Positions 47,505-64,000 of a DNA stretch of 64,000 nt are shown here, one piece after another. The DNA is taken from positions 1,926,024-1,990,023 of the forward strand of contig OZ244044.1 of assembly GCA_965215275.1 (NCBI GenBank), given 5' to 3'. The stretch is from Thermodesulfobacteriota bacterium. Its GTDB lineage: Bacteria > Desulfobacterota_D > UBA1144 > Nemesobacterales > JAJCZQ01. Numbering within the stretch: the stretch's first letter is position 1; each line of letters begins with the position of its first letter. A model generated the notes under the pieces. That model was not told the origin of the DNA. It worked only from the letters and a program-made list of their open reading frames with translations, and made no database searches. Both the position numbers and the translations under genes were made by a program.

Positions 47505-48446
47505 ATGTCAAAGAAAGCACCTGGGAAATCATACAGGAAAGGGATATCGTTAGTTGAGTTATTCAGGAAATTCCCTGACGATGCTGCTGCAGAGGAGTGG
47601 TTTGTAAAACGGAGGTGGGGAAAGGAACCCGTATGTCCGTATTGTGGGACAAGAAACGTTCAGACAGGGACTGGTCATAAGACGATGCCGTACAGGTGCA
47701 GGGAAAAAGGATGTTCAAAATGGTTCAGTGTAAGGAGCAGGACCGTTATGCAGTCTTCTGATATCAAGTATCAGGCTTGGGCAGTGGCAATATATCTATT
47801 TGCCACGTCATTAAAGGGAGTATCAAGTATGAAACTGCATAGAGATCTGGACATTACGCAGAGATCAGCATGGCATTTATCGCATCGGATCAGAGAGGCA
47901 TGGAACAGAGAAGAACTGCAAGTGTTTACAGGTTCAGTGGAGGCAGATGAGACGTTTACAGGTGGAAAAGAGAGAAACAAGCATAACGACAGGCGTAGTC
48001 ATACACGAGGGCCTGGAGGGAAGTCCATTGTTGCAGGAATGAAGAACAGAGAGACAAACAGAGTAATAGCACAACCGGTTTCTGAACGTAGTAAAGAGGA
48101 AATACAGGGTTTTATAGTAAAGAACGTAGGTAGTGGAGTAAAAACATATACCGATGATCATAAAAGCTATACAGGGTTGCCTTATGAGCATGAGAGCGTG
48201 AATCATAGTGTAAGAGAGTACGTTAAAGAGCAGGCACATGTAAACGGAGCGGGATCATTCTGGGCAATGTTAAAAAGAGGATATACCGGGACGTTCCACA
48301 GAATGAGTAAAAAGCATTTAAATCGTTATGTAAATGAGTTTTCGGGCAGGCATAATATAAGAAGACTGGACACGGAAGATCAGATGGGAACAACAGCAAG
48401 GGCAATGTATGGAAAGACCTTGCCTTATAAAGGACTGACAAGGTAA
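47505..48446 (+). CDS. IS1595-family transposase
   Basis: Same motifs as copy 1. Confidence 0.93.
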   Translation: MSKKAPGKSYRKGISLVELFRKFPDDAAAEEWFVKRRWGKEPVCPYCGTRNVQTGTGHKTMPYRCREKGCSKWFSVRSRTVMQSSDIKYQAWAVAIYLFATSLKGVSSMKLHRDLDITQRSAWHLSHRIREAWNREELQVFTGSVEADETFTGGKERNKHNDRRSHTRGPGGKSIVAGMKNRETNRVIAQPVSERSKEEIQGFIVKNVGSGVKTYTDDHKSYTGLPYEHESVNHSVREYVKEQAHVNGAGSFWAMLKRGYTGTFHRMSKKHLNRYVNEFSGRHNIRRLDTEDQMGTTARAMYGKTLPYKGLTR

Positions 48447-54584: not shown

Positions 54585-55825
54585 GGGGATTATATAGTTA
54601 AGTACCGAAGATAATATAACTATTCAGATTTATTAGATTTTTTACTTTTTGTTTTTTCATTGATATTTTTTTGTTTCTGTTTCTGAATAAATTGAGGATC
54701 AAGAGATAAAACTGCTCTTGTTATTTCCTCTAAAGTCCCTGGTATATGAGGAATTATCTTTTGTTTTTTACCTGCTGATCTTGCCATTTTAACTTATCAG
54801 TTCTTTGTATTTTAGACGCTTTCCTGACAATCCTTTTATTACTTTTTCAATCTGATCCATTGTTGGTAATGGTCGGATATTATGTCTGCCTGCATATTCA
54901 TCTACATATCTTTGTAAGTGCTTCTTACTCATCTTGTGATACATTCCCATGAACCCTCTTTTAAGCATAGACCAGAAACTTTCCATCCCGTTGGTATGGG
55001 CTTGACCTTTTATATACTCTCCTGCACTATGATTTACCCTCTCGTGCTTATATCCCTTCTTATTCAACCCGCTATATCCCAAATTCTCATCTGTATAGAT
55101 CGTTGATCCATCTCTAACTGTTTCTTTTATCATACTTTGTAACTCTTCTCTTTTTACAGTTTCTGTTACCTTTGCTTTTACTTTCTTATCTACCCTTGAC
55201 TTAATACCTACTACCGCAGATTTAGTCTTAGTGCTTCTACCCTGTGTCCCCTTTGCCTTCTTACTTGCATGTTTGTTCCTTTCCAGTCCACCAACACGGG
55301 TCTCTTCCATCTCTGCTGGAGACAGTAAAGGATCTTCAGACTGCTCTTCAAACGCCTTTCTTATTCTGTGTCCTAAATACCAGGCTGTCGTTTGCGTTAC
55401 TCCTATATCCCTCCCCAGTTTACAACTCGATACTCCTTTCAGATCAGTATTCAGCAAGTAAATTGCCATTAGCCATTTATGAAGGGATATCCTGCTCTCG
55501 GATAATAGTGTGTTGGTTCTTATACTGAAATGCTTATCACAATCTTTACATCTGTATCGCATTGTCGGATGTTTTGATCTTGATGTCCTTACGCTTCCAC
55601 AACGGGGACAGTGTCTGTTCTCTCCTCCTTTTCCCCATAATGTCCTTTCAAACCACTCTCTTGCTGATACCTCGTCTGGAAACTTCTTAAAAAATCATAC
55701 AAACTAACTTTTTTCTCTCGTACCATACTCTTTCCTCTCCTGCATATTTCTTTATCTTATATACTCTTTTAACATCTTTTAATTGATAAATTTACTCATT
55801 TCCGGTACTTAACTATATTGTTCCC
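54585..55825 (-). mobile_element. IS1595-family element subtype B, full length, transposase frameshifted near 5' end
   Basis: TIRs GGGGATTATATAGTTAAGTACCG / CGGTACTTAACTATATTGTTCCC; transposase 54789..55726; small ORF 54620..54787. Confidence 0.9.
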
Positions 55826-56914: not shown

Positions 56915-58234
56915 GGGAATTATATACAATAGTGACGAAGTCTCCAAATAAACAGTTGACAAAGCTATAGATCTGTCAGTATTACAGGTAAGAAAGTTAA
57001 ATAATTGGAGGAAGTTATATGTCAAAGAAAGCACCTGGGAAATCATACAGGAAAGGGATATCGTTAGTTGAGTTATTCAGGAAATTCCCTGACGATGCTG
57101 CTGCAGAGGAGTGGTTTGTAAAACGGAGGTGGGGAAAGGAACCCGTATGTCCGTATTGTGGGACAAGAAACGTTCAGACAGGGACTGGTCATAAGACGAT
57201 GCCGTACAGGTGCAGGGAAAAAGGATGTTCAAAATGGTTCAGTGTAAGGAGCAGGACCGTTATGCAGTCTTCTGATATCAAGTATCAGGCTTGGGCAGTG
57301 GCAATATATCTATTTGCCACGTCATTAAAGGGAGTATCAAGTATGAAACTGCATAGAGATCTGGACATTACGCAGAGATCAGCATGGCATTTATCGCATC
57401 GGATCAGAGAGGCATGGAACAGAGAAGAACTGCAAGTGTTTACAGGTTCAGTGGAGGCAGATGAGACGTTTACAGGTGGAAAAGAGAGAAACAAGCATAA
57501 CGACAGGCGTAGTCATACACGAGGGCCTGGAGGGAAGTCCATTGTTGCAGGAATGAAGAACAGAGAGACAAACAGAGTAATAGCACAACCGGTTTCTGAA
57601 CGTAGTAAAGAGGAAATACAGGGTTTTATAGTAAAGAACGTAGGTAGTGGAGTAAAAACATATACCGATGATCATAAAAGCTATACAGGGTTGCCTTATG
57701 AGCATGAGAGCGTGAATCATAGTGTAAGAGAGTACGTTAAAGAGCAGGCACATGTAAACGGAGCGGGATCATTCTGGGCAATGTTAAAAAGAGGATATAC
57801 CGGGACGTTCCACAGAATGAGTAAAAAGCATTTAAATCGTTATGTAAATGAGTTTTCGGGCAGGCATAATATAAGAAGACTGGATACGGAAGATCAGATG
57901 GGAACAACAGCAAGGGCAATGTATGGAAAGACCTTGCCTTATAAAGGACTGACAAGGTAAGATGAATAACGTTATACGATAAAAAACAGACCAAAAAACA
58001 AAGAAACTTGCAATGACGAACAGGAAAAAAACAATAGAGATCTTACCAGGGAGTTATGAACCAACAGAAGAAGAGAAAGAGGATTCGTTTTCTATTGATA
58101 CAACTCCGCAAAAGTCAGCAAAAGCTATACTCCAACCTGTCAACGTTAAAAAGAAGGATGTAAAGAAACACATTACTGAACGTTCAAAAAACAGGAAATG
58201 CTCCAGGCTTCGTCACTATTGTATATAATTTCCC
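56915..58234 (+). mobile_element. IS1595-family element subtype A, copy 3 (near-identical to copy 2)
   Basis: Same TIRs; transposase protein identical to copy 2; small ORF 58013..58228. Confidence 0.95.
57019..57960 (+). CDS. IS1595-family transposase
   Basis: Identical translation to 47505..48446. Confidence 0.93.
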   Translation: MSKKAPGKSYRKGISLVELFRKFPDDAAAEEWFVKRRWGKEPVCPYCGTRNVQTGTGHKTMPYRCREKGCSKWFSVRSRTVMQSSDIKYQAWAVAIYLFATSLKGVSSMKLHRDLDITQRSAWHLSHRIREAWNREELQVFTGSVEADETFTGGKERNKHNDRRSHTRGPGGKSIVAGMKNRETNRVIAQPVSERSKEEIQGFIVKNVGSGVKTYTDDHKSYTGLPYEHESVNHSVREYVKEQAHVNGAGSFWAMLKRGYTGTFHRMSKKHLNRYVNEFSGRHNIRRLDTEDQMGTTARAMYGKTLPYKGLTR

Positions 58235-61655: not shown

Positions 61656-62081
61656 ATGAACTCGTATGAAGATGGAAGCCTTTATCATATAGCCATAGCG
61701 GTAAGGGACATTGGCCGTGCAGAAAAAGTGTTTAAAGACGCCATTGGTTTAAGAATTACCCATAAAGAAGAGATACCTGAACAAGGTGTTCGTGCCGTAA
61801 TGCTTCAACCTGCAAGAGGCGATGGCACTGCAATTGAACTCATTGAACCACTGAAAGAAGACTCTCCGATAACTAATTTTTTGAATAAAAGAGGGGAGGG
61901 TATCCACCATATATGTTTTTATGTTGATGATCTGGAAGCCAGGCTGGATGAACTGAAGAGCAAGGGCGTAAAACTTATAGACGAGAAACCGAGGGTAGGG
62001 GCATACAACGTTAAGGTTGCTTTTATTCATCCATCCTCTATGAATGGTGTGTTGGTAGAGTTAGCTGAAAAACCTAAATAG
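61656..62081 (+). CDS. mce: Methylmalonyl-CoA epimerase
   Basis: HIAIAV, IELIEP, GEGIHHI, AFIHP, GVLVEL. Confidence 0.88.
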   Translation: MNSYEDGSLYHIAIAVRDIGRAEKVFKDAIGLRITHKEEIPEQGVRAVMLQPARGDGTAIELIEPLKEDSPITNFLNKRGEGIHHICFYVDDLEARLDELKSKGVKLIDEKPRVGAYNVKVAFIHPSSMNGVLVELAEKPK

Positions 62082-62114
62082 CCGTGCCTGAATTTATCTT
62101 GTTTATTAATTGTC

Positions 62115-62348
62115 CTAATCGTCAGATTTTTTAGGGGCTGAGAAACCTTCGAGTTTGGTTTCAGTTGTTTTTTCACTGTCTTCACGTTCGGGTGAGGATT
62201 CTGTTTCATCGTCCTTCAGTGATCTTCTGAATCCCTTAATACCTTTGCCGAGAGAAGAACCGATCTCACCTAATCTGCTGGGACCAAAGATTAAGAGAAG
62301 GATTACTAAAATTATTATTAATTCTACTATGCCAAAAGAACCAAACAT
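62115..62348 (-). CDS. tatA: Twin-arginine translocase subunit TatA/E
   Basis: Transmembrane helix, FGP hinge, LGKGIKGFR. Confidence 0.92.
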   Translation of the reverse strand: MFGSFGIVELIIILVILLLIFGPSRLGEIGSSLGKGIKGFRRSLKDDETESSPEREDSEKTTETKLEGFSAPKKSDD

Positions 62349-62442
62349 TTTTCACCTGCTTAATTAAAAGGTAACAACAAAGATAACCATTGTCAATTAT
62401 AAGAAGTAAAAGTATGTAGAAGTCAGTCTAAGAGATGGCCGT

Positions 62443-64000
62443 ATCTACAACAGTAGAAATTGTTAGGCCATCTTAGACGTGGGGTATCATGCTTAAAAAA
62501 GGTAGCATCTACAACAGTAGAAATTGTTAGGCCATCTTAGACGTTTACGCTTATCTCGTCCAGATTATATCTACAACAGTAGAAATTGTTAGGCCATCTT
62601 AGACTTAATAGCTGTATCAGTGCGACCATCATATCTACAACAGTAGAAATTGTTAGGCCATCTTAGACATGAAATTATATATGAATTCAAATGCATATCT
62701 ACAACAGTAGAAATTGTTAGGCCATCTTAGACATAATTAAGTTACTACATATAATACAGAAATCTACAACAGTAGAAATTGTTAGGCCATCTTAGACAAA
62801 GGCTGAAGCAGTTAAGGCAGCTAAAGCATCTACAACAGTAGAAATTGTTAGGCCATCTTAGACTTTATAACTGTATTAAGTGACTATTCTATCTATCTAC
62901 AACAGTAGAAATTGTTAGGCCATCTTAGACTGCCATAGTTATACCCTGCAATCAACTATCTACAACAGTAGAAATTGTTAGGCCATCTTAGACAAAACAA
63001 GCCTATTATGCTGATAAAACAGGATCTACAACAGTAGAAATTGTTAGGCCATCTTAGACTCAAGGAATTATAAAAAGGTCTGCGAGACTATCTACAACAG
63101 TAGAAATTGTTAGGCCATCTTAGACTAAAATTAGGACTATCTGCATTATCTAATCTACAACAGTAGAAATTGTTAGGCCATCTTAGACAGATATGAAGTT
63201 GTGGGAAATTCATTATTGATCTACAACAGTAGAAATTGTTAGGCCATCTTAGACTCAAAGGCGGAGTATAAGCGAAATACAATCTACAACAGTAGAAATT
63301 GTTAGGCCATCTTAGACTCAAGGAATTATAAAAAGGTCTGCGAGACTATCTACAACAGTAGAAATTGTTAGGCCATCTTAGACAGATATGAAGTTGTGGG
63401 AAATTCATTATTGATCTACAACAGTAGAAATTGTTAGGCCATCTTAGACTTGTAAAAGAGTACAAAGGCTTTCTTTCATCTACAACAGTAGAAATTGTTA
63501 GGCCATCTTAGACCAGATACAGAATCTTAAGCATTTAGTAATCTACAACAGTAGAAATTGTTAGGCCATCTTAGACTTCAAATTATGTATAGAAAAGCGT
63601 CCATATCTACAACAGTAGAAATTGTTAGGCCATCTTAGACATTATTGGATATGGATAATAGATAACAAATCTACAACAGTAGAAATTGTTAGGCCATCTT
63701 AGACTTCCATCTGTACTTTCAAATACATATTCCAAATCTACAACAGTAGAAATTGTTAGGCCATCTTAGACGGATAAGTCAGAAGGTAAGGATTTAAGAG
63801 ATCTACAACAGTAGAAATTGTTAGGCCATCTTAGACATAATTGAGGAGGTAGCAAAATGAGTGTAGATCTACAACAGTAGAAATTGTTAGGCCATCTTAG
63901 ACTGGGATCTGTAAAGAGAGGTAATTTTACAATCTACAACAGTAGAAATTGTTAGGCCATCTTAGACACAGCAAAGCGCCCACTCCAAGCGCAGCTATAT
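62443..64000 (-). CRISPR. Type V-A (Cas12a-type) CRISPR array, 24 identical 36-nt repeats visible, probably continuing past the window
   Basis: Repeat (minus strand) GTCTAAGATGGCCTAACAATTTCTACTGTTGTAGAT ends in the Cas12a handle AATTTCTACTGTTGTAGAT; spacers 26-31 nt. Confidence 0.97.

Follow-up and report, generated by a model that had tools for sequence, protein, structure and literature searches.

A candidate cis clamp on the extraneous crRNA of the last, intact repeat in a type V-A CRISPR array

When the terminal repeat of a type V-A array is intact, its extraneous crRNA is functional; of 14 native V-A terminal repeats, 11 are mutated (Liao et al. 2019, PMC6610086). Leader-repeat hairpins, described for type VI (Migur et al. 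2026, PMC13187072) and for type II-A (Liao et al. 2022, cited by Migur et al.), pair the leader in cis with the first repeat, disrupt the internal hairpin of this repeat and are widespread in the subtype. In type II-C, intergenic sequence forms a helix with the would-be guide and so sequesters it (Feussner et al. 2025, PMC12080349). Cas12a matures its crRNA without a tracrRNA; it melts weak guide hairpins, but its targeting suffers from strong ones (PMC7102956). Its processing is reduced by structure close to the cut site, and four AT-rich nucleotides can rescue it (PMC8478413); the same paper defines the separator as the excised part of the repeat, and the term is used here in this sense. Hairpins can also arise and persist through template switching (PMC8794818, PMC7202029).

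The array analysed here lies at the end of a 64,000-nt stretch of DNA (the window). The genome of the window, G000, is a single contig that is broken within the array, so that 24 full repeats are found at the contig end, 64 at the contig start (C1) and one is split by the break. The parts of the locus are as follows.

62443 to 64000, minus strand: 3' part of the array with 24 full repeats in the window, from the repeat search
C1:40 to 4184 of G000, minus strand: rest of the array with 64 repeats, from the repeat search
C1:4350 to 13524 of G000, minus strand: leader, cas2, cas1, cas4, the Cas12a3-like gene and cas12a, in that order past the 64 repeats, from profile and structure matches
62368 to 62396, minus strand: predicted sigma-70 promoter of tatA, with TTGACA at 62391-62396, a spacing of 17 nt and TACCTT at 62368-62373
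62115 to 62348, minus strand: tatA/E, the downstream neighbour (TIGR01411, 64.8 bits, cut-off 53.9)

The Cas12a of the locus has 1,265 amino acids, scores 1134 bits with TIGR04330 (cut-off 300) and contains RuvC and processing-region motifs. The cas4, cas1 and cas2 genes match TIGR04328 and TIGR04329 above the cut-off as well as TIGR01573, and are adjoined by a leader and by 36-nt repeats with a 3' handle. By its cas12a gene, and equally by its cas4-cas1-cas2 genes, leader and repeats, the locus is a type V-A CRISPR-Cas system. A further protein of 1,177 amino acids has no Pfam or NCBIfam match; among solved structures it matches only Cas12a3 chains (E 1.6e-70 and 1.5e-62), and it carries RuvC-type motifs. 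We take the motifs of both proteins to have the meaning generally given to them, and on the structure matches the second protein is called Cas12a3-like. The two putative nucleases are encoded back to back (L001:2393-9725, corresponding to C1:6192-13524 of G000, minus strand) beside a common array that has no fewer than 89 repeats. Three of its spacers are present twice, two of these pairs within the window at 63061-63414, which suggests that the array was locally duplicated or that the assembly slipped.

Since the array runs across the contig break, with the leader and the cas genes at its other end, the sequence past the last repeat in the window is the 3' trailer, and the transcript sense assumed in an earlier note on this DNA is correct. 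Being followed by the trailer, the last repeat has no spacer of its own and would yield an extraneous crRNA. The CRISPR island sits between trxB and tatA, and the tatA promoter motif begins 46 nt past the terminal handle, 29 nt separating the anti-separator described below from the −35 box. This predicted promoter scores below the threshold of the consensus scanner; its motif, TTGACA-17-TAnnnT, is present in five of five genomes of the family. Elsewhere in the window, two identical 313-aa transposase-like ORFs are found at 47505-48446 and 57019-57960, and a related 257-aa ORF at 54789-55562 on the other strand; all three are putatively IS1595-like.

The end of the array is composed of the following elements.

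62443 to 62478, minus strand: terminal intact 36-nt V-A repeat, from its sequence and the comparison of repeats
62462 to 62478, minus strand: separator of this repeat, 17 nt, of which positions 1-13 (62466-62478) form the clamp
62443 to 62461, minus strand: handle of this repeat, 19 nt, with a predicted stem probability of 0.95 within the clamp
62426 to 62440, minus strand: anti-separator, recognised by its complementarity, with an orthologue in the related genome G002 and missing from a contig of sequencing run X9
62404 to 62422, minus strand: putative decayed second handle, read from the alignment with G002, with the core TTCTAC at 62416-62421

The terminal repeat is identical to the 23 other copies in the window and thus, as the earlier note had stated, not degenerate. 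Two nucleotides further on (62441-62442) begins the anti-separator, 15 nt in which repeat positions 1-13 recur in inverted orientation with two nucleotides inserted. Its described pairing with the first 13 nt of the repeat was likewise borne out, all 13 pairs being Watson-Crick pairs around a 2-nt bulge of ambiguous register. The anti-separator covers positions 3-17 of the would-be extraneous guide. The nearby UCUACA, which had been thought able to pair with the handle, did so with a probability of 0.0 in the fold prediction. It is more plausibly what is left of a second handle, with 8 of 19 positions still identical in the collinear alignment and 9 of 19 in the best ungapped one.

The RNA was folded, a check that the earlier note had asked for. 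The 67 nt from 62412 to 62478 gave a predicted fold of −21.9 kcal/mol with a z-score of −5.25, and none of 200 shuffled sequences folded as well. When the 17-nt separator was paired with the 30 nt that follow its repeat, the terminal unit reached −20.4 kcal/mol, whereas the best of this array's 87 internal units reached −11.6. Only one of 60,000 random 30-mers of the genome paired as well as the trailer, and none of 1,448 internal repeat-spacer units of other V-A arrays reached −15. These controls confirm that the complementarity of the trailer to the last repeat is real and far beyond chance.

Four transcript contexts were folded. In all of them the handle stem stayed folded (0.94-0.95) within a large internal loop, and guide positions 3-6 and 14-17 had an unpaired probability of at most 0.01. 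The predicted cost of opening repeat positions 14-21 together with guide positions 1-20 was 16.3 kcal/mol at the terminal unit, as compared to a mean of 4.8 and a maximum of 9.8 kcal/mol over the 87 internal units. With the handle folded and the guide this costly to open, the clamp would therefore act on the guide and not on the handle. The 4 nt ahead of the processing site are mostly open in the predicted clamp, so a block of the guide, with the cut-off separator staying on, is no less likely than one of cleavage.

We give a probability of about 0.5 to the reading that the trailer acts in cis as a clamp, specific to this lineage, and inactivates the extraneous crRNA of the last repeat. It is our best reading of the trailer, and it retains the cis silencing proposed in the earlier note; the predicted route is burial of the guide, while the handle is not unfolded. 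If the array transcript reaches the trailer, the anti-separator would pair with the separator of the last repeat in the cell. Since the handle should still fold, Cas12a or the Cas12a3-like nuclease may bind. The helix would start 4 nt before the processing site and cover the guide, where it could slow processing and loading. Alternatively, the 17-nt separator could be cut off and remain on the guide as a duplex of −20 kcal/mol, leaving an inert complex.

In the short context, the anti-separator paired with the terminal separator at a probability of 0.99, in the longer ones at 0.45-0.62; the remaining pairing there probably goes to upstream separators. Such divided pairing would also suit a short trans-acting anti-repeat RNA, similar to a tracrRNA or scoutRNA, which the earlier note had offered as an alternative. 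The consensus scan revealed no promoter-like site positioned to transcribe the anti-separator alone, and only the 29 nt mentioned above remain ahead of the −35 box of tatA. Rfam gave no match apart from a chance snoRNA hit (E 0.88). The pairing partner is the separator, the part of the repeat that is discarded on processing, and such an element is absent at the 78 other array ends described below. We therefore consider a trans-acting RNA very improbable.

The guide that follows the last handle is antisense to every separator of the array. It could therefore direct the Cas12a3-like nuclease, or Cas12a, to its own pre-crRNA in a feedback or tripwire circuit that fires, for example, when blocked Cas12a processing lets the precursor accumulate; the cis clamp would be the safety catch of this circuit. 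Guide positions 1-24 form predicted duplexes of down to −26.5 kcal/mol with the spacer end and separator of their own array transcript, and a Cas12a3-like protein that contains RuvC motifs is encoded at the locus. On its 3' side, the paired separator is followed by the A-rich bases UAACAAUU, and a purine-rich flank is preferred by Cas12a3 (PMC12851939). Against this stand the 2-nt bulge, the mismatches at guide positions 1 and 2 and the distal part that differs between spacers. Activation would be toxic, and the arrangement does not recur. No DNA target with a PAM was found either, as TTV with a 10-nt seed occurs at 0 sites. We regard self-direction as improbable. A guide that targets the own DNA or represses a promoter was considered separately and rejected: besides the trailer itself, no site has up to three mismatches over 20 nt, and TTV with an 8-nt seed occurs at two sites.

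The V-A handle pattern was found in 2 of the 101 genomes of the order, G000 and G002, which belong to the same family and to different genera. In G002, directly upstream of the tatA promoter, a single full repeat precedes an anti-separator, from which 2 nt separate it, and then a second handle. With a single gap, the two trailers can be aligned as far as the promoter, and the second handle of G002, with 16 of 19 identities, occupies the position of the decayed one in G000. Of the 13 pairs, 11 hold in G002. Breaks without compensation affect pairs 1 and 9, whereas pair 11 differs on both sides, being G-C in G000 and A-U in G002. The bulge is kept in both copies, with 2 nt in G000 and 1 nt in G002, and in both genomes the end of the anti-separator lies 16-17 nt from the handle. 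The G002 trailer pairs with its own separator at −12.5, which 0.9% of random 30-mers also reach, and with the G000 separator better, at −19.2. We looked for cas12a, a Cas12a3-like gene and a V-A cas1 in G002 and found none, and no leader was recognisable upstream of this relic. At the trxB-tatA site of G002 (L278:12741-15515) lie two handle remnants and the terminal unit, together with a phage Mu F-like gene that has a PBECR3-like region. The same site is empty in G001, which is of the same genus as G000, and is occupied by a different gene in G003 and G004.

According to the alignment with G002, the ancestral array end would have consisted of a repeat, an inverted separator and a spacerless handle. 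The trailer probably goes back to a template switch, the last spacer having been replaced by the resulting inversion. During replication, a template switch would have put an inverted separator in place of the last spacer and of the next repeat's separator. This would have left a repeat, an anti-separator and a second handle, which later decayed. An origin as a self-derived spacer was also considered and is not favoured: no clean TTTV PAM precedes the matching antisense stretch of a repeat, and its first 2 nt mismatch.

The terminal unit of G002 is much better preserved than the two handle remnants upstream of it, and a run of seven U starts 3 nt after its stem. With no V-A cas genes found there, this preservation might point to a Cas-independent transcription barrier, or a protector of the 3' end, between the array and the tatA promoter. 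The stem of G000 is followed by no U-tract, and it belongs to a 53-nt structure with a large internal loop, unlike the short GC-rich stem and U-tract of an intrinsic terminator, of which none was called on the minus strand from 61900 to 62700. Moreover, tatA has its own promoter motif regardless of the island, in all five genomes of the family. The earlier suggestion that transcription is terminated before tatA is not supported in G000. The stem is also missing from the X9 contig described below. We regard a barrier or 3'-end protector as improbable.

Other V-A array ends were surveyed for similar trailers. The input consisted of 121 of 122 loci from the genome collection, a sample out of about 1,700 stretches with a V-A handle (one locus, with a single handle, was left out because it duplicated the relic unit), and of 90 loci from three lineage searches, in which 58 of 423 genomes had a handle. 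An array end required at least three exact handles and 120 unmasked nt downstream, and duplicates were merged. This resulted in 78 V-A array ends, 26 finishing on an intact handle, some of which may be truncated arrays, and 52 on a degenerate repeat. The clamp was found at 0 of the 26 and at 0 of the 52. Pairing at the intact ends reached −10.4 at best and was on average no different from that of internal units (mean −4.7 as against −4.9; Mann-Whitney p 0.70), and the degenerate ends reached −12.1 at best. Since a third of the surveyed arrays end intact without a clamp, an intact last repeat does not need one.

Metagenomes were scanned specifically for repeats of the GTCTAA type that have the matching hexamer 4-14 nt past the handle, and the three matches were all internal spacers; from the chance rate of 2 in 1,467 units, we roughly infer that about 2,000 such repeats were scanned. 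Among viral contigs, 109 loci had a handle and no scored unit contained a clamp; the best solitary viral or genomic unit reached −12.8. The search for similar trailers that the earlier note had suggested thus gave none at 78 unrelated V-A ends and a single orthologue in the same family, and one close relative is without it. The clamp is rare, having been found in two genomes of one family, and would be an accessory solution and not a rule of type V-A.

Some other loci were noted on the way. Another Cas12a3-like gene, with 31-36% identity, is present in G104 (C101; L285, L286), where one array (L149) ends in an intact handle without a clamp (−7.4). Two viral contigs (L082:301-361 and L107:301-359) have two perfect V-A handles 21-23 nt apart with the separator absent, and represent handle-only mini-arrays. 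About 250 viral stretches contain a V-A handle, mostly a single one, and these viral handles are candidates for solitary-repeat anti-CRISPR RNAs or phage mini-arrays. At L152:330-640, a degenerate two-repeat mini-array lies immediately upstream of an apparent cas12a start; it presumably resembles the regulatory crRNA-like elements. Six scattered loci on one chromosome (L156, L161, L244, L245, L246 and L261) have one or two V-A handles each.

The fourfold degenerate sites of trxB are near saturation between G000 and G002, with 49 of 126 identical (39%). Linker and anti-separator together show 14 identities over 17 nt in G000 and 16 nt in G002. For the other intergenic parts, the counts are 12 of 17 in the separator, 16 identities in the next 29 nt and 12 of 17 in the promoter spacer. 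The whole intergenic stretch therefore lies above the neutral level, with the anti-separator highest. In G000, 13 of 13 clamp pairs are kept, as opposed to 8-9 of 19 identities in the handle remnant that we infer to be of equal age (Fisher p 0.0006-0.0014, the sites not being independent of each other). Selection against the second handle, or correction of the stem by template switching, would explain this contrast equally.

A close relative was found in sequencing run X9, the only one of four aligned runs that covered the trailer (X5, X6 and X8 had no coverage there). Its contig of 8,426 nt, at a depth of 10, can be aligned to 61700-62478, where it is about 94% identical and shows 42 substitutions and 27 gap letters. 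It is without 26 nt from 62416 (62416-62441), and the entire anti-separator and the core of the second handle are thus gone; it runs on into a different last spacer. Of the 42 substitutions, 36 were located; the other six are probably no more than 30 nt from either end of the alignment, and the terminal repeat of X9 may therefore differ. With G002 as the outgroup, this state of a single contig at a depth of 10 is most simply read as a deletion, and the clamp appears to be dispensable in a close relative.

The main rival reading is a neutral relic, a template-switch inversion at the old array end that rounds of quasi-palindrome correction have kept matched to the adjacent repeat. It would have no selected role, and any effect on the extraneous crRNA would be incidental. 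A repeat, an inverted separator and a spacerless second handle are the expected product of switching out and switching back, and template switching can both make and maintain hairpins (PMC8794818, PMC7202029). The structure does not recur at 78 other ends and was lost in X9. Its retention in G002, where none of the three cas genes was found, needs no Cas protein. Correction should erase bulges, yet G000 and G002 each retain one. The constant distance of 16-17 nt to the handle also speaks against a relic, as does the fact that the anti-separator outlasted both the near-saturation of neutral sites and the decay of the adjacent handle. We consider a relic possible, if on balance somewhat doubtful.

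Taken together, the cis clamp is supported by pairing beyond chance, the high cost of opening the guide, the retention of the unit across two genera and the covariation of pair 11. The functional extraneous crRNA of intact terminal repeats (PMC6610086) and the impairment of Cas12a by structure at the cut site or by strong guide folds (PMC8478413, PMC7102956) also speak for it. Against it count the absence of recurrence, the loss in X9 and the two uncompensated broken pairs in G002. In addition, only one change affects both sides of the stem, and template switching can make and keep pairs without selection. In the predicted fold, moreover, the handle is undisrupted and the 4 nt before the cut site are mostly open. 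The rescue of processing by short AT-rich linkers (PMC8478413) and the melting of weak guide hairpins by Cas12a (PMC7102956) weigh on the same side.

If the clamp works as predicted, it would be an additional route to silence the extraneous crRNA, for which we found no description in type V-A in the literature searched. The discarded separator would be reused as a lock for the guide while the repeat remains perfect, and it would show that a single template-switch event can create such a lock. A junk guide may cost more here, because the array also feeds the RNA-triggered Cas12a3-like nuclease. The clamp would also suggest 15 nt as a cap in synthetic Cas12a arrays, where an off-target guide otherwise comes from the last repeat. 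Its reach is limited: it is present in two genomes, a close relative has lost it, and the concept itself is not new, being established in types II and VI.

The anti-repeats of tracrRNAs and scoutRNAs pair with the part of the repeat that is retained in the mature crRNA. The trailer, in contrast, pairs with the excised separator and showed neither a promoter-like site of its own nor an Rfam scaffold in consensus scans. Engineered clamps on the handle (PMC7968991) have a different geometry. The mutated terminal repeats of Cas12a arrays (PMC6610086) concern the same problem in the same subtype, and the putative second handle appears to have decayed in a like manner; here, however, the last full repeat carries no mutation, and it is pairing that is proposed to block it. 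With template-switch inversions (PMC8794818, PMC7202029) the trailer shares a short inverted copy that replaces the sequence between direct repeats and forms an imperfect hairpin. This likeness concerns the mutational origin and not a function, and it fits a clamp and a relic alike. With the leader-repeat hairpins of types II-A and VI (PMC13187072) it shares that an array flank pairs in cis with a spacerless repeat. There the partners are leader and first repeat, whereas here they are the trailer and the separator of the last one; the handle stem is predicted to stay folded with the guide buried, and the clamp is found in one family and at 0 of 78 other V-A ends. It works like these hairpins and is no member of the group, being at the wrong end, leaving the handle intact and not being widespread. 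The guide-sequestering hairpins of type II-C (PMC12080349) share the would-be guide locked in a helix, as predicted here, with intergenic sequence as the partner in place of repeat positions 1-13 at the 3' end of a tracrRNA-free V-A array. Of the systems compared, these hairpins are the closest in effect.
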